Shown here piece by piece: positions 8,051 to 38,995 of a DNA stretch of 64,000 nucleotides. A model generated the notes under the pieces. The model saw only the letters and a list, made by a program, of their open reading frames with translations. It was not told the DNA's origin and searched no databases. Source of the DNA: Escherichia coli. GTDB taxonomy: Bacteria; Pseudomonadota; Gammaproteobacteria; Enterobacterales; Enterobacteriaceae. Made by a program: the position numbers and the translations under genes. The stretch lies in the NCBI RefSeq assembly GCF_003334305.1, contig NZ_QOWS01000001.1; one strand, written 5' to 3'. Each line of letters begins with the position of its first letter. Within the stretch, counting starts at the first letter, position 1.

Positions 8051-8629
8051 TTACGCCTGATGATCCGGCTTTTTCTTCCCGCGCCGTTTCAGCCACCAGC
8101 GCACGCCCACCACCAGAACCACGACCAGAATCAACCAGACCCAGTGCTTCAAATGCTGGTCGAGATTGTGCAACCACGGCGCAATCACCTGACCACCAGC
8201 GTAACCAATAGTGGTAAAAATCAACGCCCAGGCAAATGCGCCGAGAATATTCAGCGGCAGAAAGATTTTCGGCGGCAGCTGGCTGGCACCAATCAGCGTC
8301 GGGCCAATCACCCGAAAGCCATACATAAAGCGCGTACCAATGACAAACAGATACGGATGGCGTTGGATAAGTTTCTGCGCCCGCTCAATTTTATCCTGAT
8401 GTTTCGAGAAACGGCGTAACAGCTTGCCGCCAAACCGCCGCCCGCACAGATAAAGCACCTGGTCGCCAATCATGCCGCCAAGCGCCACAGAAAGTACCAC
8501 CAGCGGGAACTTTAATAGCCCCTGATGTGCCGCAACGCCTCCCAGCAAAGTCACGGTTTCACCTTCCGCCAGGCTACCGATCACCAGCGCGGCATAACCA
8601 TATTGTGAGATGAGTGTATTGAGATCCAT
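8051..8629 (-). CDS. yohD: DedA-family inner-membrane protein YohD
   Basis: 192-aa membrane ORF from MDLNTLISQYGYAAL; recognised. Confidence 0.85.
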   Translation of the reverse strand: MDLNTLISQYGYAALVIGSLAEGETVTLLGGVAAHQGLLKFPLVVLSVALGGMIGDQVLYLCGRRFGGKLLRRFSKHQDKIERAQKLIQRHPYLFVIGTRFMYGFRVIGPTLIGASQLPPKIFLPLNILGAFAWALIFTTIGYAGGQVIAPWLHNLDQHLKHWVWLILVVVLVVGVRWWLKRRGKKKPDHQA

Positions 8630-10492: not shown

Positions 10493-10529
10493 GTGAATTC
10501 GGATGGCGATACTCTGCCATCCGTAATTT

Positions 10530-12245: not shown

Positions 12246-12440
12246 TTTCCACTCCTTGTGGTGGCGAAAAAATATCACAAACTAGAATAGCGCCTTGTAT
12301 GACAATTCAGCGAGTGAATATTTTGAAAATTCAGACAATAAACTGAGCATTCTTTTTCTCTCTCCATCATGCTTATGGCAAACTACGGTTTTTGCACCAT
12401 TTTCGCTGCCTCGTCGGGCAACAGAGGAAGAAAAATCCAT

Positions 12441-23330: not shown

Positions 23331-25331
23331 TCATCCTTGTTGCTGAAGCATGGGGAATAATTGTTCGCAAAGTAAAACACCGTTATTCATTGCTTCTACC
23401 CGTGCCTCGCTTTCTGTATTACGAAATTGTCCCAACACATGTGCCAGCCGATAAAAACCGACCGCGGAGAGGTCATTCGCCAGCAACTCTGCCTGACTAA
23501 TAGCGCTCTGTTCCTGATAGCGCCAGCCGTTATGGAGCAGTTGAATAAGTAACGCCTGGCAGCGCATCAGCAACTGATGAGCGGTAGACGGCACAGGCAA
23601 AACGCTGGCAGAAGGTAGCGGTGCCACAGGCGCAGTTTCTGCGTCCAGCGCCCAGGCGCGGGTTTTTGTCATCATCACCCGTGGTTCCAGTGTCAATTGC
23701 CCATCAACAAAACTGACAAAGCCAGAAACCAGACTCACGGGGTCGTCTGTTTGTTGCAAAAGCGCCGCCATGCGTTCAACGGCAAAAGGAGAACAGGCAG
23801 ATGCCGGAAGGGATAACGTCAGGAGATTATCTTCACCTTCGCCGCTGATTACCTGCGCATCCAGCGTCTGGCGGCTGCTATCCCAACCGAGCGAAATACA
23901 CTCAGCGACCGGCAGAATAAATAAGTTATCGACCTGATTAAGAGGCCGTATGCAGGCGGGGGGACGCTGGCGTAAATATTCCCGCAAAGCCACAATGCCC
24001 GGCTGGCGTAACGGCGCGCTCAACATTTGCCAGGCATCAGGCGACAGCGGCACAACGCTGCTTAAGCGGTTGCGGGTAGCTAACAGCAGCTCGCCATCGG
24101 CACTGCGTTTTGCTGCTTGTGAAACAATTTGCCCACCCGCCAGTGCGCCAGCCTGAAAACTAAACAGCCGACGCGTAGCTGCCGGTGAGTTTTCCTGTTC
24201 ACTTCGCGGCCAACTGCGCGAAAGGTGCAAAATACTGCCGGTGTCGGGATCGGTAAACCAGATGCGTAAACCATAATGCTCAATATCCTGCCAGCAACGC
24301 ATACCTAAAGACACCAGCCGCAGATGATCAAGCTTTGCTTCTCCGGCAATGCCAGAGCCAACGACCGTGCGCCACGGCACAGGAGGAACTTCACCAACAC
24401 TGTCGCGCCGGGCCATCTCTTGTGCGCAATTTAATCGACTGTTTAATGCCGCAAGCTGACGTAAGCATTCTCCGGCATGATAGTGGCTGGCGCGGGCGTG
24501 GAAGGCATCAACGCTTGCCCGTAGCTGTCGTAGTGATTCACTCACCCATCGCCAGTTGCAGCGTTCCGCCGCCTGCTGCGCGCGACTGAAAGCGGCCTCG
24601 TAGTGAATAAGCGGCTGGCTGATGCCGCCCAGCCATAATGCCTGGCTTAATTGCTGAACATATTGACGACACGCGTTACCCTCGTCGTTGGCAAACGGAT
24701 CGTCAGATGATGTGACGTGTTCGCTGCGCATCTGCCAGATTAAATGAGTAAATTCCGCTTGCTGAGTTTTGGCCTCGACGAAGGCCTGCACAGCCAGTAC
24801 GACATGTTCGCAAAGTGTGCCTTCAATACAATCACAACGGGCGAAACGAATACTGCTGCGGGAATAAAAACGCACATCGCTCATCGGTAAGCGGGCAGAG
24901 GGAATTTCGCCCGGCGTACAGAACAACTCAATGGTGATGCCTTTAGCGACCAACGCCTGTGCGCGTTTGCGGGTGGCATCGGGCAGGGTAGCCAGTTCTT
25001 CCAGCCAGATTGCCGGATCCCACGCTTCTTCTTTTTCCGTAGGCTGGGCGGTAGTACAAAGTCGTTGATAACTTAACACAAGCATCACGCGATGACGGCA
25101 CATACCGCTGGCCCCGCAGCTGCACTGAGCCTCTTTCAGTGCCTGGCTGTTCGCCAGCTGGGTACGGACACCGTCACTGAAGGTGGCGATTAAAGCGCTG
25201 TTCTCATGGCTGATTTCCGGGACGTTGCCATTTTCCAGTTCCTTAAGACTGCGCTTAACAAAACCGGCATTGCTTAACGCCGTCAGGGCCTGCGGTGTCA
25301 GTTCTAATAATTCCGGACGTAGTGAATTCAT
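23331..25331 (-). CDS. yehQ: SWIM zinc-finger protein YehQ (two CxCxnCxH motifs)
   Basis: Motifs CSCGASGMCRH and CDCIEGTLCEH; start ATG (25331..25329) overlaps yehP stop (ATGA coupling); exact start uncertain. Confidence 0.75.
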   Translation of the reverse strand: MNSLRPELLELTPQALTALSNAGFVKRSLKELENGNVPEISHENSALIATFSDGVRTQLANSQALKEAQCSCGASGMCRHRVMLVLSYQRLCTTAQPTEKEEAWDPAIWLEELATLPDATRKRAQALVAKGITIELFCTPGEIPSARLPMSDVRFYSRSSIRFARCDCIEGTLCEHVVLAVQAFVEAKTQQAEFTHLIWQMRSEHVTSSDDPFANDEGNACRQYVQQLSQALWLGGISQPLIHYEAAFSRAQQAAERCNWRWVSESLRQLRASVDAFHARASHYHAGECLRQLAALNSRLNCAQEMARRDSVGEVPPVPWRTVVGSGIAGEAKLDHLRLVSLGMRCWQDIEHYGLRIWFTDPDTGSILHLSRSWPRSEQENSPAATRRLFSFQAGALAGGQIVSQAAKRSADGELLLATRNRLSSVVPLSPDAWQMLSAPLRQPGIVALREYLRQRPPACIRPLNQVDNLFILPVAECISLGWDSSRQTLDAQVISGEGEDNLLTLSLPASACSPFAVERMAALLQQTDDPVSLVSGFVSFVDGQLTLEPRVMMTKTRAWALDAETAPVAPLPSASVLPVPSTAHQLLMRCQALLIQLLHNGWRYQEQSAISQAELLANDLSAVGFYRLAHVLGQFRNTESEARVEAMNNGVLLCEQLFPMLQQQG

Positions 25332-26464
25332 GACTGAAGATTCTCCGCAAGCCATGATGCCAGCTCGCCCGGTGTCATGGCGGCTATTTGTGCGCCGACA
25401 TTTACCAGCGCCTGGGCCGTATCGTGGTCATAGCAAGGTGTTGCTGTGCTATCGAGCGCTGCCAGTCCCAGCACTTTGATGCAGCTCTGGACACACTTTT
25501 TCACCTGATGCGTCAGTAATGATGATGAACCCCCTTCGTAAAAATCGCTCACGAGGATAATGACGCTTTTCGCTGGTTGTTCAATAAGTTGCCGACCATA
25601 CTCCACGGCACTGGCGATATTGGTCCCGCCGCCCAACTGTACTTTCATTAATAACTCTACCGGATCGGCAACGTCTGCCGTGAGATCAACGACGCTTGTG
25701 TCAAACGCCACCAGATGGGTACGAATGCCGGGTAACTGCCACAAACAGGCCGCCATCACCGCAGAGTGGATCACCGAATCGACCATCGATCCGCTTTGAT
25801 CAACCAGTAAGACCAGTTGCCATTGTTCGCTTTGGCGTTTAATGCGGCTGTTAAAGCGGGGGGATTCGATATACAACTTGCCGTGTTGCGGGTGCCAGTG
25901 TTGCAGGTTGGCGCGCAGAGTACTTTTGAAATCAAAGTTTCGCGCCAGTGGAATAAATGAACGGCGACGGCGATCGCGGACACCAGAAAAAGCCTGACGA
26001 ACTTCCTTTGCCAGTCGCGCCATAATTTCTTCAACAACCTGGCGCACTATCTGGCGGGCGGCAGCCAGTACTTCGGGATTCATCAGATGTTTGGTGTGCA
26101 AAACGGCGCGTAGCAGGCTTTCCGAAGGCTGCATACGTTCCAGCACGTCGAGATTTGTCACCACATCTTCAATGCCGTAGCGCAGTACGGCATCGCTTTC
26201 CAGCCGCTCAATCACCTGTTGCGGAAACAGCGTGTGGATACTGTTGATCCACTCAGGAGTGGTGAGATTTGAGCCACCTAATCCACCAGAGCGTTCACCA
26301 CGCTGGAGCCGTTCAGGATCGCGCCCATACAGCCACTCCAGCGCGTGATCTATCTGCCGGGCGTTGTCATCCAGCCCACAAAGCGTCGTTTCTGCCGCTT
26401 CGCCAAGAATTAATCGCCAGCGTTGTAGCTCACGGGTGGTCAGAAGATCGTTCAGTTCAGACAT
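25328..26464 (-). CDS. yehP: von Willebrand factor A (VWA) domain protein YehP with MIDAS motif
   Basis: 378 aa from MSELNDLLTT; MIDAS DxSxS in LLVDQSGSMVDS; overlaps yehM 3' end by 8 nt. Confidence 0.85.
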   Translation of the reverse strand: MSELNDLLTTRELQRWRLILGEAAETTLCGLDDNARQIDHALEWLYGRDPERLQRGERSGGLGGSNLTTPEWINSIHTLFPQQVIERLESDAVLRYGIEDVVTNLDVLERMQPSESLLRAVLHTKHLMNPEVLAAARQIVRQVVEEIMARLAKEVRQAFSGVRDRRRRSFIPLARNFDFKSTLRANLQHWHPQHGKLYIESPRFNSRIKRQSEQWQLVLLVDQSGSMVDSVIHSAVMAACLWQLPGIRTHLVAFDTSVVDLTADVADPVELLMKVQLGGGTNIASAVEYGRQLIEQPAKSVIILVSDFYEGGSSSLLTHQVKKCVQSCIKVLGLAALDSTATPCYDHDTAQALVNVGAQIAAMTPGELASWLAENLQS

Positions 26465-27098
26465 GGAAAACTCCCCAGTGTTGCAGCGATGCCAGTGCCT
26501 GCTGTTCGAGTTGTTGATGATGTGCAATGGCTTGCGGTGGACAATGCAACGGCATTTGCAGTGCCGAAACGGGAAGTTGCGCCAGTTGATAATGCTCAAG
26601 CACCTGATGCGCCAGCGTTCCGCGTTCTCGTGGCGGTAGCCAGGCCATCGCCGCGCGTAAATCGGGCAGGGCATTGATAAAATCGGCATCACTTAGTTGA
26701 TTTAAATGACTGCTGAAACCGGCGATAAATGTCGGCTGACAGGCCAGTTGATGACGGGCTAATGCCAGCAAACCTTGCAGCGCCTCGCCGGATTGTGCCG
26801 GGGATAACTGCGCCAGCATCGTCAGCGCCGCTTCGGCACTGGCGTTGGGATGTTCCAGACGCATTAGTGCGCCAAGAACCGCGCCGCGATCCAGCGCCGG
26901 GGCATGAATCGCCTGACTGCGTCGCTCCAGTAAGGCTACCGCCGCAGAAAGCGAAACGCCGGATAAATTAACGCCGCTATGTAGATCGCGCAGAATATGG
27001 CAAAGCGCTTGCCAGCTATGCAGGTGAGCGTGAAACTCCTTTTCATCCGGTCTGCCGTTAGATTCACACAGCCACAGCGTGCGATCGATAGCGCGCAT
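26457..27098 (-). CDS. yehM: C-terminal ~213-aa segment of YehM, in a different frame from the N-terminal segment (apparent frameshift)
   Basis: ORF MRAIDRTLWLCESNGRPDEK... continues to a stop overlapping the yehP start; frame differs by one nucleotide from 26936..28735. Confidence 0.55.
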   Translation of the reverse strand: MRAIDRTLWLCESNGRPDEKEFHAHLHSWQALCHILRDLHSGVNLSGVSLSAAVALLERRSQAIHAPALDRGAVLGALMRLEHPNASAEAALTMLAQLSPAQSGEALQGLLALARHQLACQPTFIAGFSSHLNQLSDADFINALPDLRAAMAWLPPRERGTLAHQVLEHYQLAQLPVSALQMPLHCPPQAIAHHQQLEQQALASLQHWGVFHV

Positions 27099-28735
27099 AA
27101 CGTCGTTTGTAATATCTGCGCGCCTTGCATACCGCTAATTTCATCCAGCCGCCATAAGGCATATAGCACTTCCAGCGCCTGGCCCATTTCGGCAAATTGA
27201 TTTTCCTGGGCGATTAATAATGTGAGTTGCTCCAGTAATTGTTGACTGAAGGACGCCAGACCCGCTAACGCCGCCTGGCTAAGACATGTGGTGATACTGC
27301 CGATTCCACCCGCGTCCAGCATATCGGCTTCTAATTTATGGCGTGCGGCTTCCTGGAGTGTTGCACCAAAGCAGGCGGCCTCAATCAATGCCGCATGCTG
27401 GCTAAGCGGGCGGGTTAATTTCCAGCGTTCTTCACCGTTGCCTGCAAGTGTCAGTGTGCTTCCCTGCTGGCGTACAATCCCTGGGATCTCCAGTATTGCC
27501 AGCCGATGTAACACCTGACTTTGCGCTAGTCCATTGGGGTTAAAGCGATTTAAGGTAAGCTCCGCCGGAAGAGAGATTGCGGTACGTTCCAGTTCGCAGG
27601 TGACATCTTTTGGCAGAGGCGGTTGTGGCGTAGAAGGGGCAAGTTTACCGAATCCGTCACCCGCTAATGTGTCTATCAACGTTAGCAGAATCGGATCGGT
27701 ATCGGGATGAATAACGCCGCGATAGCTCCACGGCAACGGCGCATTCAGGGCTTCTTTAATCAGCGAGCCTGCTATGGCATCCAGCCAGTCAGTGCGTAAC
27801 GGTAGTGTATGACCGCGCAACTGTGCCAGCGCCATCGCATGCAGATGAGCGGCAGCCATATCCGCGGTCGAAGCAGGCAACTTGTGCTGGCGCAAACGGG
27901 TGAGAACCGTTTTTAGCAGTTGTTCTCCCGCCTGCTGTAAGCCCCACTGCCAGCACCAGTTTTGCCAGACCGGGGCAGGCATTCCGGAAAGGTATCCTGC
28001 CAGCACATCAAGGCGCTTTTCACTGTAGGGGGTGAGATAACAACCTGTAACGGCATCTGCCAGCGACGGCAATTCTGGCGTGTTAATTTCCTGCGGGCAT
28101 TCGCGCCACATTTTTGCCAGTACCGGAGCGTGCCAGCCACCGCAGACAACTAACACGTCGCCATTATTTTGCTGCATCGCCCATCCAATCCAGCGGGCCA
28201 TAAAGGCTTCGCGCAGACGATTGAGAGCATCTCCGGGGGAGTCGCCCCGCAGTTGGGCAAAATAGTGCGCCAGTGCAGAGGGTAATGCAGTTTGCTGGCT
28301 TTCATCTTCGAACAAGTGATCCCACAGGGTGTCGCTGTTATCCATGCGGGTGGCACGCAGCAGCAAGGCCTGGCTTTCCTCTTGCGTATCAGGCGAATCG
28401 TCCACTTCTTCACTCTGCGCCCAGCAAGGCAAATCGATGAAGTAAGTTTGTGCCTGAATACGACGTGCGGCTTGTAGCGCCTGCCACTCCGGCGAAAATT
28501 CAGCAAATGGCGTCCAGGCACCACGCCCGGGGGCTGCACCGTCCTGATACTGGCAATAACTGTAAATAGCTACCGGAAGCTGGTGGGCTAAAAACAGTTC
28601 GTCTACCCGGTCATTAAAATCAGCCGGGCCTTCAATCAATACGTATCGTGGCCGCTGGCTTTCGATTAACGATTTCACCAGCCGGGCGCAGGCCGGACTA
28701 TGATGCCGGATGCCGACAATTAACGGCTCGCTCAT
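26936..28735 (-). CDS. yehM: N-terminal ~599-aa segment of YehM (unknown-function partner of the MoxR/VWA pair)
   Basis: Start MSEPLIVGIRHH overlaps yehL 3' end by 12 nt; the last ~50 codons before the stop at 26936 look out of frame. Confidence 0.6.
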   Translation of the reverse strand: MSEPLIVGIRHHSPACARLVKSLIESQRPRYVLIEGPADFNDRVDELFLAHQLPVAIYSYCQYQDGAAPGRGAWTPFAEFSPEWQALQAARRIQAQTYFIDLPCWAQSEEVDDSPDTQEESQALLLRATRMDNSDTLWDHLFEDESQQTALPSALAHYFAQLRGDSPGDALNRLREAFMARWIGWAMQQNNGDVLVVCGGWHAPVLAKMWRECPQEINTPELPSLADAVTGCYLTPYSEKRLDVLAGYLSGMPAPVWQNWCWQWGLQQAGEQLLKTVLTRLRQHKLPASTADMAAAHLHAMALAQLRGHTLPLRTDWLDAIAGSLIKEALNAPLPWSYRGVIHPDTDPILLTLIDTLAGDGFGKLAPSTPQPPLPKDVTCELERTAISLPAELTLNRFNPNGLAQSQVLHRLAILEIPGIVRQQGSTLTLAGNGEERWKLTRPLSQHAALIEAACFGATLQEAARHKLEADMLDAGGIGSITTCLSQAALAGLASFSQQLLEQLTLLIAQENQFAEMGQALEVLYALWRLDEISGMQGAQILQTTLCALSIARCGCVNLTADRMKRSFTLTCIAGKRFAIFCAIYIAALIYPAFRFLRR

Positions 28736-28745
28736 GCATCTTTCC

Positions 28746-29834
28746 TCACGGCAGGCGGTGGCGGGCTTGATAATAAGCCTGCCAGTGAGCTTCTTTATGT
28801 GTGGCGACTCGTTGTTCGAAGTAACGGCGCAGACGAGCGCGATCTTCTTCGTTATCTTTGACGATGGTTCCGGCAATGCAGTCCACCAGGTCGGCTGGCT
28901 CACCTGCGCGATTCGCTAAAAACCAGGCGCGGACGCCTACGGCGTGGGCCACGTTCACGGCTTCAGCGGTGGACATAATCGCTGTTAGTGTATCCATTGA
29001 CGTTTTCTTTTCGCCGTTGGCACGCAGATCGCGGAAGGTGCGGACCAGTAACTCCAGTACCGCGTCAGGCACTTTATGCGGAATACCGCTATGGGCCAGC
29101 AAACGCGCCGAAGCACTGGCGACAAGCTCCAGCTCCTGGGCGAAATCCATAATCGGAAAGACAGTTTCAAAATCGAAGCGACGCTTTAGCGCAGCACTCA
29201 TTTCATTGACGCCGCGATCTCGGGTATTGGCAGTGGCAATAATATTAAAGCCTTCTCGCGCATAGAGCTGACTGGCTTCACCAGTGAGTTCCGGCACCGT
29301 CATCACCCTGTCAGAAAGCATACCTAACAGACAGTCTTGCACTTCCAGCGGTGTACGCGTTATCTCTTCAAAACGGACGATTTTGCCGTCGCGCATTCCC
29401 TGGTAAAGCGGGGCAGGGACCAGCGCTTCCGTTGATGGACCATGATTGATAAGCAGGGCGTAGTTCCAGCCGTACTTGATTTGATCTTCGGTAGTAGATG
29501 CGCCGCCCTGGATGGTTAACCCGGCATCGCCGCTAATAGCGGTTGCCAGTAATTCAGACAGGAGAGATTTTGCGGTGCCAGGTTCCCCCACCAACATCAA
29601 ACCGCGCCCGGTGGCAAGAGTGACTAACATGCGTTCGACAGCGGAGGGACTAATCACCACTTTACGGCTAATATTTTGCGCGCTATCGCCAAGGATAAAA
29701 GCACGGGCCGCAGGCAAACTTAACTGCCAACCGGGCGGGCAAGGAGCGTTATCATTTTGTTTTAATTTTGCCAGTTCATCGGCGTATAACACAGCAGCAG
29801 GCGGACGCTGCAGATGATTATTCTGCGGTGACAT
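28746..29834 (-). CDS. yehL: MoxR-type AAA+ ATPase YehL
   Basis: Walker A GEPGTAKS, Walker B-like IVRFEEITR; 362 aa from MSPQNNHLQRPP. Confidence 0.88.
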   Translation of the reverse strand: MSPQNNHLQRPPAAVLYADELAKLKQNDNAPCPPGWQLSLPAARAFILGDSAQNISRKVVISPSAVERMLVTLATGRGLMLVGEPGTAKSLLSELLATAISGDAGLTIQGGASTTEDQIKYGWNYALLINHGPSTEALVPAPLYQGMRDGKIVRFEEITRTPLEVQDCLLGMLSDRVMTVPELTGEASQLYAREGFNIIATANTRDRGVNEMSAALKRRFDFETVFPIMDFAQELELVASASARLLAHSGIPHKVPDAVLELLVRTFRDLRANGEKKTSMDTLTAIMSTAEAVNVAHAVGVRAWFLANRAGEPADLVDCIAGTIVKDNEEDRARLRRYFEQRVATHKEAHWQAYYQARHRLP

Positions 29835-29941
29835 ATATTCATCCCTGAAATGTATTAATGAAATAAACGATATTTTACGCGCAATAAATGTTTGGCGCAT
29901 TAGTTGTTTGAGCAAAAAATATCTGGAAAGCAGATCGCAGT

Positions 29942-30028
29942 AAATAAAAAAACCTGCTGGTGAGGCAGGTTCTTTTATTTACTATTTTCAGGCCTAACAC
30001 CACAGCCTGTGCAACATCGTGTTCCAAC
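29942..30028 (-). ncRNA. orzP: Orz-like antisense sRNA (type I antitoxin), copy proximal to yehL; approximate ends
   Basis: Minus-strand sigma70 promoter (-35 ttgcaa 30058..30063, -10 tataat = plus attata 30035..30040); intrinsic terminator 29951..29971 plus U-run; 5' end complementary to zor leader at 30175..30194. Confidence 0.55.
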
Positions 30029-30034
30029 GAACGA

Positions 30035-30085
30035 ATTATAACCACGGCTGGACCCCGTTGCAATTAAGATAATGAGATTTATAAT
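30035..30085. promoter_or_regulatory. Divergent overlapping sigma70 promoters sharing one palindromic -35 hexamer (TTGCAA)
   Basis: ttgcaa at 30058..30063 is its own reverse complement; plus-strand -10 tataat 30080..30085 (16-nt spacer); minus-strand -10 at 30035..30040 (17-nt spacer). Confidence 0.55.
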
Positions 30086-30266
30086 CCAGACCGTTGGGAC
30101 GTTGCGCCGGATCGAACCTATTTCAAGTCCTGGCTACCGGACGGGGGGTGCTGCAGGTGGTGCCCTGATCCGGAGTGCAACATCGTGGTCCAACATACGT
30201 AAACCAGTATCGACAGGCAGTGTAAGGGTAAGGTGCTGGTGTTGCGCTCCTTAATAAGGAGAGCGG

Positions 30267-30356
30267 ATGGACTCGCTGACACAAAAGTTAACCGTGCTCA
30301 TTGCTGTACTGGAGCTATTAGTGGCTCTGTTACGGTTGATTGATTTGTTGAAGTAA
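30267..30356 (+). CDS. zorP: 29-aa hydrophobic type I toxin peptide, Zor family (MDSLTQKLTVLIAVLELLVALLRLIDLLK)
   Basis: ATG 8 nt after SD ggagag; single TM helix with C-terminal Lys; predicted leader ~174 nt from TSS ~30093; O versus P naming inferred from position. Confidence 0.6.
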   Translation: MDSLTQKLTVLIAVLELLVALLRLIDLLK

Positions 30357-30376
30357 CGGGCAAATTGAAACGCATC

Positions 30377-30404
30377 TAAGGGGGAAAACCGCTTCCCCCT
30401 TTAA
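30377..30404 (+). terminator. Intrinsic terminator of toxin mRNA (copy 1)
   Basis: aaggggga aaaccgc ttccccctt hairpin followed by tt/aat. Confidence 0.6.
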
Positions 30405-30551
30405 TAAAATGATTACTGTTTTTATTAATTCATCATATAACTCATTTTTATTTATAAATTCATCGATTTTATATTCAACGCACCATTTGACCGGGATGTG
30501 AATATTTATGTTGGGCTATTGGCAAAAAATATCTGGAAAGTAGATCGCAGA

Positions 30552-30636
30552 AAATAAAAAAACCTGCTGGTGAGGCAGGTTCTTTTATTTACTACAGTGA
30601 CGCTAACTTGCTGATTGTGCAACATTTCGTACCAAC
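30552..30636 (-). ncRNA. orzO: Orz-like antisense sRNA (type I antitoxin), copy proximal to yehK; approximate ends
   Basis: Same architecture as copy 1: -35 ttgcaa 30666..30671, minus -10 at 30643..30648, terminator 30561..30581; 5' end complementary to leader 30785..30802. Confidence 0.55.
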
Positions 30637-30642
30637 GAATAA

Positions 30643-30693
30643 ATTATAACCATATCCACACTCCATTGCAATTCAGTGAGTGAGATTTATAAT
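30643..30693. promoter_or_regulatory. Divergent overlapping sigma70 promoters sharing a palindromic -35 (copy 2)
   Basis: ttgcaa 30666..30671; plus -10 tataat 30688..30693; minus -10 at 30643..30648. Confidence 0.55.
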
Positions 30694-30874
30694 CCTGCCC
30701 GTTGGGAGGTTGTGCCGGATCGGACCAATTTTAAGTCCTGGCTGCCGGACGGGTGGTGCCGCAGGCGGTGCCCTGATCCGGAGAGCAACGTTTCGTACCA
30801 ACATACGTAAACCAGTATCAACAGGCAGTGTAAGGGTAAGGTGCTGGTGTTGCGCTCCTTAATAAGGAGAGCGG

Positions 30875-30964
30875 ATGGACACGCTGACACAAAAGTTAAC
30901 CGTGCTCATTGCCGTACTGGAGTTATTAGTGGCTCTGTTACGGTTGATTGATTTGTTGAAGTAA
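30875..30964 (+). CDS. zorO: 29-aa hydrophobic type I toxin peptide, Zor family (MDTLTQKLTVLIAVLELLVALLRLIDLLK)
   Basis: Differs from copy 1 peptide by one residue (T3 vs S3); SD ggagag; hand-translated, below ORF-track cut-off. Confidence 0.6.
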   Translation: MDTLTQKLTVLIAVLELLVALLRLIDLLK

Positions 30965-30984
30965 CGGGCAAATTGAAACGCATC

Positions 30985-31012
30985 TAAGGGGGAATACCGT
31001 TTCCCCCTTTAA
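30985..31012 (+). terminator. Intrinsic terminator of toxin mRNA (copy 2)
   Basis: aaggggga ataccgt ttccccctt hairpin. Confidence 0.6.
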
Positions 31013-31017
31013 GAAAG

Positions 31018-31073
31018 CTATACTCGTCATACTTCAAGTTGCATGTGCTGCGACTTTAATTATCTAGAGTATA
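31018..31073. repeat. Short ERIC variant (both ERIC termini joined, central part absent)
   Basis: ctatactcgtcatacttcaagttgcatgtgctgcg matches the left end of the ERIC at 295..428, and aattatctagagtata matches its right end. Confidence 0.65.
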
Positions 31074-31391
31074 TTATTCTATTTCTTGGTTGAATATATT
31101 CTGTAGTTCACGATTAAAAATTGCTATTACAGTTTCAGGTGATTCACCTCGTAATTTCCGCTCATCAATACACTCATCTCTTATATAAATCAACGCATCA
31201 TTTATTAGCGGGTCAGCATCTTCTCGATCACGTTGATGAAATGTTGGATGTAGCCGGAATCGCTCCAGTCGATAGACGGAACCTGTAAATAATTCAGAGC
31301 ATTTATGGATCTCAAGTCTGAAGGAAAACGGATCTTCAGGTACAGGGACCTCATAATCGTAAATAGCAACTAGCTCTTTTTGCACGATCAT
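31074..31391 (-). CDS. yehK: Uncharacterised small protein YehK (105 aa)
   Basis: ORF MIVQKELVAIYDYEVPVPEDPFSFRLEIHK...; recognised by sequence and position downstream of yehI. Confidence 0.75.
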   Translation of the reverse strand: MIVQKELVAIYDYEVPVPEDPFSFRLEIHKCSELFTGSVYRLERFRLHPTFHQRDREDADPLINDALIYIRDECIDERKLRGESPETVIAIFNRELQNIFNQEIE

Positions 31392-31451
31392 CGCTTTCCC
31401 CGCTGGTAAGTCGTGTAGATAACGGGCAGTCGCATCACTGCCCGCTGTGTT

Positions 31452-34400
31452 TTAATGGAAAATGACGTCAGGTGCGCTTAACGCCTCACTCAAATCAAAC
31501 ACATCAAGTTCGGCAAAAGTGACGGATTTATTGTCACGGTACACTCGAAGAGAACGGAAGCTCATTAGCGCTTTGCTATCAACATTGTAGTGGTTAAAAC
31601 CGGGTGAAAACTTAAGGACCAGCCGGTACTCGCCCAGGTCATAGACAAATGCATCCTCATAGCCTGACTCCCAGCCTTTGTATCGCATTCCCATAAGCTG
31701 CCCAACGGTAGCGGATTTACCTTCCCAGCGAGTCAGGCTGTTACTGGTTGACTCATCAGGTGTGAGCAGCACCGTGCACCGCGCCAACTGGCGAAAAGGC
31801 GGCATAATTTCGTAATCGGCAAAAAGCTGTGCAAATTCACTGCGCATTTCTACTGTCATTTCTAACGGGTGGGCAATGCCAATCAGAGCGTCCGCAGGCA
31901 GGTCAATTGGCTCATCTTGCGCATTGCAGAACTCCCCCTCTGCGGCCACACGAAAGGCGTTGAGTAAACAACGCGGTTCATTTGCCGGATAAGCCCCCCA
32001 TATTAATCGCTGGGTAACCAGACGGGTAAAGGGATGATTAACAAACAGAGAATGAAAATCTGCCAGCGACCAGCGTCGGGTGGTACGTAGGGCCGTTTCA
32101 AGACGCGGGAGCAGGTTTTTGCTCACCTGAGTGGCATCTTTTTTTAGCCCTTTTAGTCGGGCCAATGCCTCGGGCGCTTTCAGTTGATCGTCATCGGCGC
32201 GCAACCGGGGAACGCTTTTCTGGCGAACGTTTTGCTGATCAAAGATAACCGGGTTGAGGTTTTCATCGAAGCGAACGGTAAACTGCCGGGGACCAAAATC
32301 AAAACTCAACGCCTGCGGATCATCAAGGCCCAGGGTTGGGACTAATCTGTCCGCTAGCTCTTCCTGGCTTAGCCCGCGATTTTCTGCGACCACCTGAAGA
32401 AATTCCGCCGCGTTATCACGTAAGGGGCGGGATTTCGCCCGTTGCGATATATGATGCAGCTGTATCAGCGCCATATCATTATTCATCAGGGTAAGGATGT
32501 TCAGGCCACTGACAGCACGGGCAGATTTGCCTTCTTGTGGCCAGCCGAGGATCTGTGTCGTTAGATCCCGTGCCGTGCTTTCGTCACCAAAGAGACTTAA
32601 CGCCAGAAATGCCCAGTTGTCTTTTACGGGGGCACCAGCTTGTTGCCACGCAGTGAAGAGATCCCAGGCAAAAGCTGCCAGCGTTTGTGGCTGGCAGAAC
32701 GTTTTCAGTTGTTCCAGCCCGCTATAAAAACGTCCCCCCTGGGTAAAGCGCAGCATTTCGCCGATAATTTCCAGAGCGTCATCGGTAACAGGTTGATTAT
32801 TAGTGATAAGGCGCGGCCTGGACCACATTTGCGGATGCCAGAAATCAGGGGCTTTTGGAATGCGTGCCGGGTAAATCTCTATTGGACTCTGTTTAAGTAA
32901 TTGTTCCAGGGCAGGCCATAGATCTGTACGCTGCCAACGATTGGCTACAGTTTGTAGCAATTCGCCATGCCCATGTTCGTAAAGTAAACGCAGGGCAAGT
33001 AATGCAGCTTCGCTTTTATCGCTAGATTTGGTGAAGATAAGAGGGATAAGTGCAGTAGCCGTATGTTCCGGCCATTGTAAAATCCACTGGCGAGCCAGAT
33101 TACGCTGGCCCGCAAAACGGTGCCAGACGCGGGCAATGGGCAGGGCCAGTTCTGTTGCGCCGAAATTTAAAATTAACGGAAATGTTTCTTTTGGACGATG
33201 TGAAAAAGCCAACATCAGACCTGGTAGCGCATCCAACCCGAGGATACTGAGAAAATAGTCCTCACCCGCGAACAGATGTTTTTTCTCATTGATACGCAGC
33301 CAGAAGGTCAAAGCCATCTCACGCGGCAACTGTGCCAATAAATACAGGTTCCAGACACTCTTTTCCGGACGATAACGTGAGTAGTTGTCATTTTCCCATA
33401 TGTTAATTAACGCTTCTATGTGACCGCTGCGGAGCGCCTGTTCTGCTAATTGTGCTTCCGGGGAGTTCCAGCCATTCAGGATCTCTTCAACCCGCCCCTG
33501 GTAGTAATGCCACTGAACAATGAGTGAATTGCGTGCAGCATCCAGTTTTCCGGGGAGTATATAATTCAAAAACAGCCATACATCATCCCCAAAACCCAGT
33601 TCCTGTAATACAACTCGCCCACTTTTTTGTTCCATGCGTTCCGCAAGAGATTCCGTGCTGAAATAACGGGCAGGCTCAGTGGCGGCAAGCCTCTCTCGTT
33701 CGCCAGGTTGCCAGTAAACTTGCGGCGTTAATTCGAGCGGTGCCAAATCAAGACGTGGAGCTGTCATTTTTTTCTTACTACGCCACGGTGGTGAAACGAG
33801 GATTTCAGGCAGATTGCTGTTATCGGTACTATCAATAACCGGTTTGGGCGGTGCCGATAAATAACTATTCAGCACTGCCCTGGCTTGAGTACTTAACCAC
33901 TGCATCATCTCTTCTGCCAGTTGTGGCTGCGATGCCATCAGCGTTTGTAACAGCGTACGCCAGTATTCATCGCGTGCTTTTTGCTGTGCAGGCAGCTTTT
34001 TGTCTTCGATGATTGGATAACCTGGGCGGGCTGGTGGTTCTGTTAACGCCAGCAGTTCTGCCAGTGCGGCGAGCGTCGCATGGGGGAAGTTTTTATGGTA
34101 TTTAGCTACACGTTGCAGGCTGGGTTTGTTTTTATCAGCCACCAGTAGCAAGGTGCGGATGACTTGCGGATGGTTAATTTGTACCAGCAGACTGCCGCAA
34201 TCTTCTTTATGGGCATACATCGCGAGGCGCGGAATGGCTGCCAGTCCTTGTTCGCGCAAAAGGGCGGCGCAGGCCGCGTAGCCGAAGTGGTTTTCATGCG
34301 ACATGTAGCTGGCTTCTCGATCGCTAAATATATCCTGGCTCCAGTAGTGCTCGAGTTTTCTCACCGCTGTGGGGTCATTAGCAACAACTTTTAACCACTC

Positions 34401-35084
34401 CTTAGAATGAAAATGAGTTCGCGGGCATTCAAGGCCTACCAACTCATTGGCTATTTCTGGTTTTTCCGGGAGGATCAGCGCAATAAAAGGGCGGCGAACT
34501 TTGGTTATTCCTGGTAGTGCGGCAATGAGTTTGTCGGCGCAACGCTGCCAGCAGCTTTCCTCTGCCAGAGAGAGATGCTTACGCAGTCGGAGATCGAATT
34601 CGTTATAGGTTTCTGAGCGATAACCATAGCCATAATCCTCGTCCTGATACTGCAATGTCACTACCAGAGGATCACTCTCATAACACCGCGCAATAAACTG
34701 GCGTGCAATCACCACCTCAGTCGCATATTCCAGCCCCTCTTGTTGGACGATTTCGTCGAGCAACTGTTGGCTGTCATTTTGCGCGATACAGGCTAGCGCC
34801 GCCATTGTCCGGGCCGGGATTGAGGGTTTGTGTTCGCCGATCAAGTTGATGGCCTGCGTGATGGCGGACTGCCACTCCAGTGAAAAATTTTCATAACGCC
34901 AGACAATGTTTTTTTTCTTCTCAGCTTTTTGTAGCAATTCATCACCCAGTGTCTGAATGATGCTTTCAGTGATAACAGGCACCGGTTCGCCCGGCCATTT
35001 GCGATGACTGAGTGGTGTTTTGCCTTTTTTATATTTCAGTTCCAGTTGGGCGTTATCCGCCAGCCACGGTAATTCCTTGTCCAT
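31452..35084 (-). CDS. yehI: Large DUF4132-family protein YehI (1210 aa), paralog of MolR
   Basis: Shares long collinear blocks with the upstream ORF (e.g. RLRKHLSLAEES.WQ.CA.KLIAA, LFADYE..PPFRQL). Confidence 0.85.
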   Translation of the reverse strand: MDKELPWLADNAQLELKYKKGKTPLSHRKWPGEPVPVITESIIQTLGDELLQKAEKKKNIVWRYENFSLEWQSAITQAINLIGEHKPSIPARTMAALACIAQNDSQQLLDEIVQQEGLEYATEVVIARQFIARCYESDPLVVTLQYQDEDYGYGYRSETYNEFDLRLRKHLSLAEESCWQRCADKLIAALPGITKVRRPFIALILPEKPEIANELVGLECPRTHFHSKEWLKVVANDPTAVRKLEHYWSQDIFSDREASYMSHENHFGYAACAALLREQGLAAIPRLAMYAHKEDCGSLLVQINHPQVIRTLLLVADKNKPSLQRVAKYHKNFPHATLAALAELLALTEPPARPGYPIIEDKKLPAQQKARDEYWRTLLQTLMASQPQLAEEMMQWLSTQARAVLNSYLSAPPKPVIDSTDNSNLPEILVSPPWRSKKKMTAPRLDLAPLELTPQVYWQPGERERLAATEPARYFSTESLAERMEQKSGRVVLQELGFGDDVWLFLNYILPGKLDAARNSLIVQWHYYQGRVEEILNGWNSPEAQLAEQALRSGHIEALINIWENDNYSRYRPEKSVWNLYLLAQLPREMALTFWLRINEKKHLFAGEDYFLSILGLDALPGLMLAFSHRPKETFPLILNFGATELALPIARVWHRFAGQRNLARQWILQWPEHTATALIPLIFTKSSDKSEAALLALRLLYEHGHGELLQTVANRWQRTDLWPALEQLLKQSPIEIYPARIPKAPDFWHPQMWSRPRLITNNQPVTDDALEIIGEMLRFTQGGRFYSGLEQLKTFCQPQTLAAFAWDLFTAWQQAGAPVKDNWAFLALSLFGDESTARDLTTQILGWPQEGKSARAVSGLNILTLMNNDMALIQLHHISQRAKSRPLRDNAAEFLQVVAENRGLSQEELADRLVPTLGLDDPQALSFDFGPRQFTVRFDENLNPVIFDQQNVRQKSVPRLRADDDQLKAPEALARLKGLKKDATQVSKNLLPRLETALRTTRRWSLADFHSLFVNHPFTRLVTQRLIWGAYPANEPRCLLNAFRVAAEGEFCNAQDEPIDLPADALIGIAHPLEMTVEMRSEFAQLFADYEIMPPFRQLARCTVLLTPDESTSNSLTRWEGKSATVGQLMGMRYKGWESGYEDAFVYDLGEYRLVLKFSPGFNHYNVDSKALMSFRSLRVYRDNKSVTFAELDVFDLSEALSAPDVIFH

Positions 35085-35093
35085 GCTCTTTCC

Positions 35094-38000
35094 TTATTCA
35101 AACAGGGCTTCAATATCGTTAATTAGCTCGCTGGCGGTGATGGCATCGAGTACGGAGAACTGCGCTTCCTGTGTTGAATTACTCCCCCAGCCATAGCTTT
35201 CCGCTTTGCCTTCCCATAACCACAGCTTGCTTAAGAGCTGCTCAGCGCTAAGTTCGGCTGGTGACATACCCACCGCAAAACCTTCGTCGATTTCCATGAT
35301 TAACGACCAGCGACCCAAAGGTTTGATCATCCATCCGATCCAGCCTCCATCCTGTGGTTCGCCCTTTATCCAGCCTTTATTCGCCAGCCCCATGACCCGA
35401 CCACTCGGGCATTTTCTGCCTGCCCAGCGGGTCAGTTCACTGGCATTGTGCTCGGCTTCTGTCAGGGCGTAGCTGTTACGGTCGAGCTGGCGGAACGGTG
35501 GTAGCAGTTCGTAGTCGGCAAAAAGCTGACCAAAGGCGGCAGCATCCGTTGGTGATATTTCCAGAACGTGAGGAGTGCCGATAGAGATATCGCCTTCCGG
35601 CAGGGTGAAAAGATCATCGTCAGCGGTGCTGTAGCTGTTATCTTCTGCTACGCGAAAGCAAGCCAGTAGCTGGTTTTCGGCGCTATAAACGCCCCAAATC
35701 AGACGGCGGGTTAAGTGGCGAACCAGCGGATGCTCAACCAGGAAGAGCTGGAAGTTTTCCGGCGACCAGCGGCGGCGCAGGCACATGGCGGATTCCAGCC
35801 TTGCTACCTGCTGGGCGGCGACGGTACGCGCATCTTTTTTCAGCAATTTGTAGCGGTTAACCGCATCGTTCGACCGCGATTCATCATCGCTTTTGTTCGG
35901 TTTGGGCAGGTCTTTCAGGCGGCTGCCGGAAACATCACGCACAAACGGTTTTAAGGTTTCATCAAAGCTGACGGTGAACTGCCGTGGGCCAAAATCCAGC
36001 AGCAGCGAACCGTTATCATCCAGACCGAGATCCGGTGCTAACCGATCTTCAAGCTCCGCCACCGTGAGTTCGCGGCTCTCGGCAATGTCGGCAATTTTTT
36101 CTTTTGCCCGCTCCTGTAATGCTTTGAATTTCAGTTTCTGGGCGATGCCGTTAAGCTGCATAAGGGCGATATCACTACCGATAGCAGCGAGAATATCCAA
36201 CCCAACGGTGGCGCGTTTATGCTGGGATTCACCAGGCCAGGCGCGTATTAATGGCGTCAGTTTGCGGGCGGTGTCATCGTTACCGAGAACGCCTAACGCA
36301 GTGAACGCCCAACTCTCTTTCGACGGCGCGCCAGCGGTCTGCCAGGCGGTAAACAGATCCCAGGCAAATCCCGCCAGTGAGTCGGCGGAACAGACGTCTT
36401 TCACCTGCAATAATCCCGGATACAGAGCCTCTTCCTGAGGGAAGCGGAGCATTTCACCGAGGTGGAGGAGGGCGCTATCTGGCAGTGATTGGGCATTTGC
36501 TTTTAATACCGGGCGCGTCCAGAGCGATGGCTGATAAAAGGCCGGAAGAGTGGGGATTTTTGTCGGGTGATTATCTAAGGGATCGAGCGCAAGCAGAGCG
36601 TTCACCGCATCGGTTACTTCCGGCTGGTTATAACGTCGGGCGATTTCTTGCAGTAATGGCTGATGACCGTTTTCGGTAAGCATACGCAAGGCAGCGCGGG
36701 CGTTATCCTGTGCTTCACCGGCTTTGCCGAGCGCCGCAGGCAGCAGGCCGGTAAGGGCATGTTCCGGGTATTTCAACAGCCAGCTACGGGCGTTTTCGCG
36801 TAGCGTTTTCAGTTTGTTGAAGGCACGGGCGACGGCAGGAGCCAGCTCACTCGCTGCGAAGTAATTCGTGATGGGCAAGGCTTCTTGTGGATAGCGTGCA
36901 AGTGAGTTTACTAACCCAGGTAACCCTTTGAGTCCAAAATGTAACATGGCGTATTCGGTATCGGTATGTGGAGATAGGGTAAGGGCATTCCATGCTTTTA
37001 CTGCTTTCTCCAGCGGCAATGTTGTCAAAATCCCCAACTGCCAATAATGCCCGGTAGGTGAATGAAACACCTTAAATTCACTTAGTAAGGTTGAATAATC
37101 TTCATTTAGCCATGCCTCAACTACCGCTTCGGGAGCTTTAATATATGTACCAGCGATCCGTCGTTGAAAACCCATCCTTGCCAACAGGTTGGTAGTACTT
37201 TCTTCATGGCTAACCGTGATGTGTTTTGAATACCAGATATATTTCGCCAAAAGTTGATTACTGATTTCTTCTGTCAGATAACAGATTGGCTCAATGCCTA
37301 ATGGCGCTAAATCCAGCACCGGAATCGGCGATTTTTTCTTTTTCGAAAGCCAGGGAGGGGAGACTACTACGGCTGGCAGTAGATCGGCGCTGGCATGGTT
37401 TGAGGGCTGTGTCAGTTGTTGCTGGCATGATTTCAGTACGGCAACTGCGGGTGTCGAGAGCCAGGGAATGACCTGTTCTGCCAGTGCTGGTTGTGAGATA
37501 AGCATTGTCATTAGCATAATGCGCCAACTGTTCTCTTCTTTTTGCCCAAGAAGTTCCGTCAGTGCCGCCATTGCTGCATGTGGGAACGCAGCGCAGGCTT
37601 TCGTCATCCGATCGTGACAGCGTTTAGTATGCCCGGCTACACGTATAAGCAGTGTTAATGCGAACGGATGATTGATATGACGCAACACATCGGCGCAGTA
37701 GTCACTTGCGGCATAGGGAGCAAATCGGGGCAGGGCTGCAACACCTTGCTCCTGTAATACGGTGGCTGACCATATCGCACCACAATAGTAATCATCAAAA
37801 ATGGCATATGGCTCGTGATATTTTTCTAATGAGGCAAGAATGTGCTCATCAGTCGCCACTATTTTTAACCACTCAAGCGAGGGTAATTTTTTTTGCCCCA
37901 GTAGACGCTGGGCAATTTCATGTGCAATTTCTGGTTTTTCGGGTAATAACAAAGCAATTAATGGTTGCCGCCATTCTGGAATATGTGGAATTGCGGCAAT

Positions 38001-38888
38001 AAGTTTTTGTGCACATTTTTGCCAGAGAGACTCTTCCGCCAGTGATAAATGTTTACGTAGGCGTAATTCAAATCTGGAATATTGCTCCAAGTAGTCAGGT
38101 GCAATGCCAGACGGCAGAATAATAATGACATTATTCGCATAATCCCATTTAATATCAATCTGTTGAAGGTGTATTATTACATCAGTAGCATATTCCAGAC
38201 CGCCTTCCTGGACGATCTGATCCATAACATCCTCACGCACTTTATATCTTGTGCATTTCATTTCAAGTGCCGTGAGTACAGCCATTACTGGTGATGGTAG
38301 CTGTGTTGTTTTCAGGCCGTCGATCTGACTGATCGCCTGGGCGACGGTGTTTTGCCATTCTAAAGAACAGGCGCTGAAGTCAAATGTGGCTGTTTTATTA
38401 TCCCGTTGCGACACACTACAGGCTAAGCGACGTAATTGGGTCAATTTGTCTGCTTGCTGAACAGGAACTCCGGGAAAGCGGCGATGACTTAACGTGGTGT
38501 GTACAACTTCGGGCGGAAAAACGACAGCAATATCTTTCGCCAGCCACGGTAAAACAGCATCTGTATTTTTGTCAGGCGCACGGGTTTCTGCTACGAAAGA
38601 GGGTTGTTCCTGAATAATGGTGGATAAGTCCGCTACCTTGAGAGAGCCCGTTACCGTTTGGGAAGGTTGCAAAGAATTATCCTTCGCTTGCTCCACATAC
38701 CCCTTCTTCACCTTCTCCGCAATCAGCTTAAGCTCCGCTTTTGCCGCTGCCGCAGCATCTGAAAAACTTTTTATCTGGCTTTGCCCTTTGGTGCCAACTT
38801 TTCCCCAACTGATATGCAACTCGTTTCCCTGTTGCTCAACTGCCCAGAATTTATGTGATTTTTCGTCCTGATAGATAAAGTGTCTCAT
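35094..38888 (-). CDS. molR: Intact MolR-family protein (1264 aa) with N-terminal WGR domain and C-terminal DUF4132 region
   Basis: N-terminus MRHFIYQDEKSHKFWAVEQQGNELHISWGKVGTKGQ is a WGR domain; uninterrupted here; 9-bp gap to yehI. Confidence 0.8.
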   Translation of the reverse strand: MRHFIYQDEKSHKFWAVEQQGNELHISWGKVGTKGQSQIKSFSDAAAAAKAELKLIAEKVKKGYVEQAKDNSLQPSQTVTGSLKVADLSTIIQEQPSFVAETRAPDKNTDAVLPWLAKDIAVVFPPEVVHTTLSHRRFPGVPVQQADKLTQLRRLACSVSQRDNKTATFDFSACSLEWQNTVAQAISQIDGLKTTQLPSPVMAVLTALEMKCTRYKVREDVMDQIVQEGGLEYATDVIIHLQQIDIKWDYANNVIIILPSGIAPDYLEQYSRFELRLRKHLSLAEESLWQKCAQKLIAAIPHIPEWRQPLIALLLPEKPEIAHEIAQRLLGQKKLPSLEWLKIVATDEHILASLEKYHEPYAIFDDYYCGAIWSATVLQEQGVAALPRFAPYAASDYCADVLRHINHPFALTLLIRVAGHTKRCHDRMTKACAAFPHAAMAALTELLGQKEENSWRIMLMTMLISQPALAEQVIPWLSTPAVAVLKSCQQQLTQPSNHASADLLPAVVVSPPWLSKKKKSPIPVLDLAPLGIEPICYLTEEISNQLLAKYIWYSKHITVSHEESTTNLLARMGFQRRIAGTYIKAPEAVVEAWLNEDYSTLLSEFKVFHSPTGHYWQLGILTTLPLEKAVKAWNALTLSPHTDTEYAMLHFGLKGLPGLVNSLARYPQEALPITNYFAASELAPAVARAFNKLKTLRENARSWLLKYPEHALTGLLPAALGKAGEAQDNARAALRMLTENGHQPLLQEIARRYNQPEVTDAVNALLALDPLDNHPTKIPTLPAFYQPSLWTRPVLKANAQSLPDSALLHLGEMLRFPQEEALYPGLLQVKDVCSADSLAGFAWDLFTAWQTAGAPSKESWAFTALGVLGNDDTARKLTPLIRAWPGESQHKRATVGLDILAAIGSDIALMQLNGIAQKLKFKALQERAKEKIADIAESRELTVAELEDRLAPDLGLDDNGSLLLDFGPRQFTVSFDETLKPFVRDVSGSRLKDLPKPNKSDDESRSNDAVNRYKLLKKDARTVAAQQVARLESAMCLRRRWSPENFQLFLVEHPLVRHLTRRLIWGVYSAENQLLACFRVAEDNSYSTADDDLFTLPEGDISIGTPHVLEISPTDAAAFGQLFADYELLPPFRQLDRNSYALTEAEHNASELTRWAGRKCPSGRVMGLANKGWIKGEPQDGGWIGWMIKPLGRWSLIMEIDEGFAVGMSPAELSAEQLLSKLWLWEGKAESYGWGSNSTQEAQFSVLDAITASELINDIEALFE

Positions 38889-38995
38889 TCTGCATCCCTG
38901 TAATTTTATCCAGTTGAATGCAGATGCTACCAGTATTTATGCGGGTTAGAGAGAGACAAAATCGCAAGAAAACAACTTTAGGAATTTATAAAGAA

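Follow-up and report, generated by a model that had tools for sequence, protein, structure and literature searches.

The yehLMPQ genes of Escherichia coli and their predicted place in a larger MoxR-VWA module with WGR/DUF4132 giants

Gene content and layout of the yeh locus

We examined the yehL-yehM-yehP-yehQ gene cluster, which lies at positions 23331-29834 of a 64,000-nucleotide stretch of Escherichia coli DNA from contig NZ_QOWS01000001.1 (the whole stretch is called the window throughout). A reading made from the letters alone, the sequence-only reading, had described the cluster as a tight, co-directional set of MoxR AAA+, VWA and SWIM zinc-finger genes with no assigned function, and had put it forward as a candidate conflict or assembly system. 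The four co-directional minus-strand genes are real, appearing both in the open reading frame (ORF) list and in the RefSeq annotation, and their motifs were confirmed. The genes have long been known and annotated; as a system they are of the MoxR-VWA kind, with extra components. The lack of an assigned function also holds, in that we found no functional study in the literature on yehL, yehM, yehP, yehQ, DUF5682 or DUF4132, and YehL is known as the type member of the YehL subfamily, one of seven subfamilies of MoxR ATPases (PMC3893208). We propose that the cluster is the downstream half of a larger unit that would also include the giant genes yehH and yehI. The genes concerned, from upstream to downstream, are as follows.

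35094-38888, minus strand: yehH (molR), an intact gene for a 1264-residue giant with Pfam WGR at residues 6-69 (4.9e-18) and DUF4132 at 988-1173 (2.2e-49)
31452-35084, minus strand: yehI, a DUF4132 paralogue of 1210 residues without WGR (Pfam DUF4132 at 944-1128, 8.1e-46)
28746-29834, minus strand: yehL, a MoxR-class AAA+ ATPase of 362 residues (ORF and annotation, Pfam AAA_5)
26457-28735, minus strand: yehM, a DUF5682 gene that is a frameshifted pseudogene in the window and encodes 759 residues when intact ("frameshifted" in the NCBI Prokaryotic Genome Annotation Pipeline, PGAP; Pfam)
25328-26464, minus strand: yehP, a CoxE-type VWA protein of 378 residues with an intact metal ion-dependent adhesion site (MIDAS) (Pfam VWA_CoxE)
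23331-25331, minus strand: yehQ, a SWIM zinc-finger protein of 666 residues (Pfam SWIM)
23236-23252, minus strand: a predicted terminator-like hairpin 3' of yehQ (consensus scan only)

The region is 100% identical to that of E. coli strain A7, isolated from orangutan faeces (NZ_CP028767). Of 5426 complete E. coli genomes, 5363 contain the yehLMPQ locus, which is nearly always single-copy and chromosomal. Two of the gene junctions are as the sequence-only reading had them: the yehM stop (26457-26459) and the yehP ATG (26464) overlap by 8 nt, and the yehP stop (25328-25330) and the yehQ ATG (25331) overlap as ATGA. The 12-nt overlap that had been described for yehL and yehM is instead a gap, with the yehL stop at 28746-28748, the yehM ATG at 28735 and a 10-nt spacer, ggaaagatgc, between them. 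An in-frame yehM start was looked for upstream, before 28903, and none was found; RefSeq annotates the identical gap in both A7 and K-12. No transmembrane-like segment was detected in any of the six proteins scanned.

A YehM-homologue profile matched at least 532 of approximately 100,000 species-representative genomes, and the cross-taxon counts given here refer to 80 retrieved loci drawn from five phyla and including Gamma- and Betaproteobacteria, Myxococcota, one acidobacterium and many Actinobacteria. YehL is present in all 80 of these loci, YehP in 79, YehQ in 76 and a DUF4132 protein of the YehH/YehI type in 75-76. The gene order is always one to five giants followed by L-M-P-Q on one strand, or L-M-P-Q-H in Burkholderia, and a giant homologue adjoins the module on the same strand (5' of yehL, or 3' of yehQ in Burkholderia) in approximately 72 of the 80 loci. 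Tandem giant paralogues are common in other taxa, in one to five copies; YehH and YehI are 37% identical. A protein combining WGR and DUF4132 is the dominant architecture and the sole giant in 37 loci, and many actinobacterial giants have no detectable WGR domain. Spacing is short throughout, with medians of 52 nt (H-L), 14 nt (L-M), 14 nt (M-P) and 2 nt (P-Q), and all-against-all clustering of the flanking ORFs revealed no other conserved neighbour beyond genus-level synteny. A Proteus clade, though only 27% identical, retains H-L-M-P-Q.

The sequence-only reading had treated the four genes as a unit lying beside the giants. Because, across phyla, the giants accompany the module more consistently than any other partner does, we regard them as predicted core components, and the functional unit in the window would extend from 23331 to 38888. 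The unit to study is therefore one of five or six genes including the giants, rather than four. Identity between E. coli and the Actinobacteria is 64% for YehL, 57% for YehP, 39% for YehH, 38% for YehM and 26% for YehQ, and this gradient of constraint (L > P > M ~ H > Q) fits a conserved motor combined with faster-evolving recognition parts.

At one end (166-4876) of a faecal contig deposited as "UNVERIFIED Bacteriophage sp." (MT835988.1), we also noted genes resembling yehL, yehM and yehP, arranged as usual; the contig is probably mislabelled or of bacterial origin.

The component proteins and a proposed mechanism

YehL matches Pfam AAA_5 at 2.6e-34, and its Walker A (GEPGTAKS, G83-S90) and Walker B-like (VRFEEITR) motifs are at least 95% conserved over the 80 loci, which bears out the MoxR motifs of the sequence-only reading. 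Its best sequence matches in the PDB are the AAA modules of Midasin. YehP matches VWA_CoxE from end to end at 2.1e-72, in agreement with the VWA MIDAS motif DQSGS noted in the sequence-only reading, and the MIDAS residues D222xS224xS226, T249/T256 and D307 are likewise at least 95% conserved. The two proteins are paired genomically, with the VWA protein encoded in the same operon as YehL in 79 loci. Sequence and profile searches of the PDB found no relative of YehP, and an NCBIfam scan of the components returned weak, generic AAA and VWA matches only.

Two further features of this pair deserve mention. YehL carries an N-terminal extension (residues 9-50, at approximately 29685-29810 on the minus strand) that is at least 95% conserved from E. 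coli to the Actinobacteria and includes Q9 R10 P11 P12 A13 and P33 P34 G35 W36; it has no assigned domain and may be a partner-binding motif. Within yehP, the window contains an exact match to a published cassette prone to +1 frameshifting.

25591-25606, minus strand: frameshift-prone cassette GTGGAGTATGGTCGGC inside yehP

For a yehP-egfp reporter, a frameshift product of 303 residues has been described from reporter and mass-spectrometry evidence (PMC2790909).

YehM had been described as having no recognisable motif. The K-12 protein matches Pfam DUF5682 at 3.1e-98, and its structural model has a recognisable N-terminal fold. In the model, the first ~240 residues form a parallel beta-sheet core flanked by helices that resembles solved members of the TIKI/TraB/ChaN/Ere group, and the remaining ~500 residues resemble HEAT/ARM solenoids. 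G8, R10, H11, E35, R175-E176, G199-G200 and H202 are invariant in 80 of 80 loci. Members of the TIKI superfamily use a set of two histidines and two glutamates, with an essential His-Glu pair, to hydrolyse an ester or peptide (PMC6254334). To judge by their conservation, H11, E35, E176 and H202 of YehM may correspond to this set, and on the strength of the model YehM probably bears a predicted hydrolase active site with four invariant, mutable residues.

Sequence-level comparisons of YehM were negative. Pfam reported DUF5682 alone and no family of the TIKI/TraB type; a profile search against PDB sequences gave no relevant match; an hhalign comparison of the YehM profile with the E. coli TraB-family protein YbaP gave a probability of 0.14% and aligned only the second GxxH-like segment; and a Foldseek search of the model against the PDB yielded nothing at E<=1e-3, with insignificant HEAT/ARM matches only.

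A natural fusion of YehM and YehP exists on a megaplasmid of Streptomyces sp. NBC_00984, where a single 1257-residue "DUF5682 family protein" (9947-13720 of the retrieved locus) combines a region resembling YehM with a complete VWA domain of the YehP kind. By the Rosetta-stone argument, this fusion suggests that YehM and YehP act together. Upstream of the fusion lie genes for a 288-residue DUF4132 protein and a 1639-residue "DNA-binding protein".

YehQ carries two SWIM-like fingers, CSCGASGMCRH and CDCIEGTLCEH. The CxCxnCxH signatures reported earlier are thus present, with weak Pfam SWIM matches (1.1e-3 and 0.21). The first finger (C70xC72x5C78xH80) is invariant in 75 of 75 sequences, whereas the second is kept in only 42-43 of 76. 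YehQ is the fastest-evolving component, and no relative was found in the PDB by sequence or profile.

We put the probability of the following reading at roughly 0.45: yehLMPQ would make up the downstream half of a five-component machine that is conserved, self-contained and cytoplasmic, and in which a MoxR-VWA motor gates a hydrolase by way of a giant. Here we infer the protein-protein contacts, the hydrolase activity, the trigger and the biological role from the observed gene content, order, motifs, conservation and fold similarity. YehL would form a MoxR-type AAA+ ring, and YehP would act as an adaptor, its MIDAS site linking ATP hydrolysis to a partner. The YehM domain of the TIKI superfamily (TraB/ChaN/Ere/RRSP-like) would be a hydrolase, most likely a peptidase or esterase, and the HEAT-like scaffold would dock it to YehP. 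YehQ, with its invariant first finger, and the WGR-solenoid-DUF4132 giants YehH and YehI would recognise the target or signal, with the WGR domain pointing to a nucleic acid as the cue. Remodelling by the motor, either of the giant or of a client that the giant holds, would then activate the YehM hydrolase or bring its substrate to it. The sequence-only reading had cast the SWIM protein and the large partner as candidate sensor or effector parts; in part that idea stands, since it would fit both the modelled TIKI-like domain of YehM and the YehM-YehP fusion.

Lesions, regulation and genomic context

The copy of yehM in the window is not the intact gene of ~760 codons that the sequence-only reading had taken it to be. 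Alignment to K-12 shows that one A is absent (TTATGCGCG[A]CTATCG, ~27091/27092); this is the sole indel in the operon, and that reading had missed it.

27091-27092, minus strand: 1-nt deletion in yehM, removing the A of codon 549 (ACT in K-12); the shifted frame stops at 26936-26938

The gene is consequently split into ORFs at 26936-28903 and 26457-27098, and PGAP flags it as "frameshifted" in A7. The predicted truncated protein has 599 residues, 548 native and 51 out of frame, and lacks the last 211. Ribosomes on the shifted frame would stop 472 nt short of yehP, and translational coupling would be lost. A 44-mer spanning the deletion occurs in 1 of the 5426 E. coli genomes, that of strain A7, while the corresponding undeleted 45-mer occurs in 1011. 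The ratio of nonsynonymous to synonymous substitution rates (dN/dS, here always computed against K-12) is equal, at 0.116, in the portions of yehM 5' and 3' of the lesion, and the lesion is therefore either very recent or a sequencing error. A 1-nt deletion private to this strain is thus predicted to leave its module inactive or impaired.

Broken alleles are not confined to this strain. K-12 MG1655 carries a GAG to TAG amber mutation at codon 615 of yehQ, after which the following 52 codons are still 98% identical to the window, and its yehH is interrupted by a stop (codon 275) and carries one inserted nucleotide (nt 2845); the stretches concerned are 4475-8270 and 17101-18945 of the retrieved K-12 MG1655 locus. 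K-12 is thus a natural yehH/yehQ mutant. Negative results from K-12 knockout collections are accordingly uninformative for this module, and because K-12 and A7 both carry lesions, A7 in yehM, work on it requires an intact allele set.

Several observations weigh against the gated-hydrolase machine proposed above. The AlphaFold2 model of YehM is moderate in quality, with a predicted local distance difference test score (pLDDT) of 77 and a predicted template modelling score (pTM) of 0.51. Database clusters of truncated E. coli YehM, of 600, 508 and 424 residues, have 385, 613 and 1108 members, against ~19,000 for the intact 759-residue form; truncated YehQ forms are about as frequent, and broken yehM and yehQ make up approximately a tenth of database sequences. 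In a sublineage of sequence type 131 (ST131), a resistance transposon lies within the DUF4132 region. Taken with the K-12 lesions, these alleles argue that the module is dispensable in E. coli. Furthermore, a link of the module to the SOS response, taken up below, may be specific to E. coli. Despite this dispensability, values of dN/dS within E. coli are 0.04 for yehL, 0.08 for yehP, 0.12 for yehM and 0.18 for yehQ, which points to purifying selection on intact alleles.

In the window, the giants and yehL are separated by sequence that lies outside the conserved module.

31074-31391, minus strand: yehK, 105 residues, lineage-specific, with a homologue in 1 of 80 loci (Escherichia whittamii)
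29946-30964, no strand assigned: tandem zorO-orzO / zorP-orzP type I toxin-antitoxin insert, absent from K-12
29946-30021 and 30556-30629, minus strand: OrzO-P antitoxin RNAs (Rfam, 99.9 and 88.8 bits)
30267-30356 and 30875-30964, plus strand: toxin ORFs of 29 residues (ORF search)

The type I toxin locus, which had been called uncharacterised, is the zorO-orzO/zorP-orzP locus that has already been described (PMC2887945). The insert separates yehHIK from yehLMPQ, and the yehK-yehL gap measures 1240 nt in the window and 306 nt in K-12. Only ~110 nt separate the end of the orzP terminator from the yehL ATG, and a sigma-70 scan of this stretch found no promoter-like site.

Upstream of yehH lies a candidate regulatory site.

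38898-38913, minus strand: LexA-box-like site CTGGATAAAATTACAG, 9 nt 5' of the yehH ATG, with one mismatch to CTGT-N8-ACAG

A published set of LexA-regulated genes includes molR, which is yehH, and gives it a known SOS box (PMC6590174). H-NS binds upstream of yehL, and yehL and yehM rise in hns/stpA mutants (PMC3686432). In view of the LexA box of yehH and the H-NS silencing of yehLM, the module appears to be normally off and linked to DNA damage in E. coli. In Deinococcus, genes containing WGR and DUF4132 are de-repressed upon depletion of DdrO.

These data raise the alternative of a DNA-damage machine, in which the WGR giant would recognise damaged DNA or stalled complexes, and the AAA+/VWA motor together with YehM would pull out or cut a trapped protein, such as a DNA-protein crosslink, in the manner of an AAA+ segregase working with a protease. 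The WGR domain is a proposed nucleic-acid binder known from PARP enzymes, and SWIM fingers are found in DNA-associated proteins; both are in keeping with such a role, as are the LexA-regulon entry, with its matching site, and the Deinococcus data. However, the LexA-like site taken alone is not above chance, with 20 occurrences of the pattern in the window against 17 expected, and no rightly placed exact LexA core (CTGT-N8-ACAG or GAAC-N4-GTTC) was found upstream of the module in the 80 loci, whether proteobacterial or actinobacterial, which is why the SOS link may be restricted to E. coli. The SOS box, moreover, controls yehH, from which yehLMPQ is set apart by yehK and the zor-orz insert, and WGR goes undetected in many actinobacterial giants. 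A DNA-damage role thus has literature support in E. coli only, and we regard it as improbable.

The gated-hydrolase machine must also be weighed against a role in genome conflict, which the sequence-only reading had put forward as one candidate. Kaur et al. 2020 described MoxR-vWA "ternary" systems derived from CoxD-CoxE pairs, in which vWA proteins are fused to peptidase effectors. By analogy, yehLMPQ could act against phages or other mobile elements, with the giant, YehQ or both sensing the invader, the MoxR-VWA pair setting a threshold, and the YehM hydrolase being released as a toxic or abortive effector. The architecture would parallel that of the ternary systems (MoxR, a vWA-peptidase fusion and a rapidly evolving third part), and a Streptomyces M-P fusion does exist. 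The giants are tandem divergent paralogues, and both they and YehQ evolve fast. The module is patchy among genera of the Enterobacterales, and many of its hosts are filamentous actinobacteria and myxobacteria. Silencing by H-NS is typical of acquired genes, and pseudogenisation is recurrent.

Against this stand the tests of genomic context. A scan of YehL, YehM, YehP, YehQ, YehI and YehK against PADLOC-DB v2 (E<=0.01) matched 0 families, and the match of YehL to Pfam bpMoxR (PF20030), the MoxR of the conflict clade, is weak (E 0.0021) and covers residues 51-102 only. Kaur et al. 2020 make no mention of YehL, SWIM, WGR, TraB or a yehLMPQ system. In 10 diverse taxa the flanks are housekeeping in character, with purF, rpoH, a member of the cystathionine gamma-synthase family (metB-like), fabK, and GGDEF and SspA-like genes, as well as an ABC permease, a Ser/Thr kinase and regulators; these flanks are not defence islands. 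The chromosomal position is fixed in those E. coli genomes that have the locus (5363/5426), and the module is nearly absent from phages and small plasmids: tblastn against 50,697 phage records gave one weak match, to an unverified faecal contig, and 39 of 72,556 plasmid records that were also screened gave matches, mostly to megaplasmids or mislabelled chromosomes. Selection on all parts within E. coli is purifying rather than diversifying. Analogy allows a defence role, but all of the contextual tests spoke against one, and we consider it unlikely, though less so than the DNA-damage machine.

Phage origin was separately considered on account of near-identical "families" in PHROGs, and was rejected, given the one weak match among the phage records and the reproduction of the split yehM in these families. 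The entries phrog_30700, 33984, 31592, 29006, 20839, 36602 and 36295 are almost identical to E. coli YehM (in two), YehP, YehQ, YehI/YehH and YehK, and are probably host DNA inside a predicted prophage.

A further alternative is a housekeeping maturation chaperone, comparable to CoxD-CoxE, NorQ-NorD, CbbQ-CbbO, CobS-CobT-CobN or BchI-BchD-BchH. A specific client would receive a metal or cofactor from the MoxR-VWA pair, or be assembled by it, and the giant of ~1200 residues would be this client or a substrate carrier. AAA+/VWA chelatases consist of an AAA+ motor, a VWA adaptor and a partner of ~1200 residues, a layout that the giant and its motor pair mirror. YehP is of the CoxE type, the motor is very strongly conserved, and the neighbourhoods are housekeeping; moreover, all characterised MoxR-VWA pairs are maturation factors (PMC3893208; Kaur et al. 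2020). On the other side, known pairs sit within the operon of their client, whereas no gene for an enzyme or structural client is conserved adjacent to this module, and Pfam detects neither an enzymatic nor a cofactor-binding domain in the giant. The module is also dispensable, often broken in E. coli and H-NS-silenced, and the historical name "molybdate regulator" is backed by nothing found here. For a classical maturation role there is no conserved client other than the giant itself, and we judge its chances to be low, on a par with those of the DNA-damage machine.

Implications and comparison with known systems

The yehLMPQ genes are among the larger E. coli gene blocks still without a function, and the machine that we favour has different consequences depending on its trigger. 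An ATP-gated protease tied to DNA damage would be a new type of damage-response pathway; tied to an invader, it would be a new MoxR-VWA conflict system. Were the module a maturation chaperone after all, the WGR/DUF4132 giants would be the long-sought client. A bolder form of the gated-hydrolase proposal, which we offer as a speculation less probable than the machine itself and slightly more probable than a defence role, is that the giant and YehL-M-P-Q constitute an unrecognised, phylum-spanning, ATP-gated hydrolase system. In it, the WGR-bearing giant and the SWIM protein would sense a nucleic acid or DNA damage, upon which the motor would license a TIKI-type peptidase. The system would amount to a new conflict or abortive class or to a new pathway of damage proteolysis, and it would have been missed because K-12 is a yehH/yehQ double mutant.

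Compared with the pairs CoxD-CoxE, RavA-ViaA, NorQ-NorD and CbbQ-CbbO, the module has in common a MoxR AAA+ protein (AAA_5) encoded beside a MIDAS-containing VWA protein. It differs from pairs of the CoxD-CoxE type in having no client enzyme operon and in the addition of DUF5682/TIKI-like, SWIM and WGR-DUF4132 parts. With respect to the TIKI/TraB/PrgY/ChaN/erythromycin-esterase superfamily, which includes RRSP, HopBA1 and PMT, YehM lacks significant sequence or profile similarity and Foldseek is unsupportive of a relationship; its predicted domain is fused to a HEAT-like solenoid of ~500 residues inside a MoxR-VWA operon, an arrangement for which we found no previous description.

The ternary systems of Kaur et al. 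2020 likewise combine MoxR and a CoxE-derived vWA protein with fast-evolving parts, and a peptidase-like domain accompanies the vWA protein, sometimes as a fusion. By Pfam, the present module has only DUF5682, SWIM, WGR and DUF4132 in addition, with no VMAP, iSTAND or beta-propeller domain; its predicted peptidase-like domain is of the TIKI type and normally resides on a separate protein, and its context is housekeeping. Finally, the giants have no homology to BchH or CobN, and TIKI-like and SWIM proteins are absent from the chelatases BchI-BchD-BchH and CobS-CobT-CobN; the module nevertheless shares with these an AAA+ motor, a VWA/MIDAS adaptor and a partner of ~1200 residues, and YehP has a weak, VWA-level match to a cobaltochelatase model.

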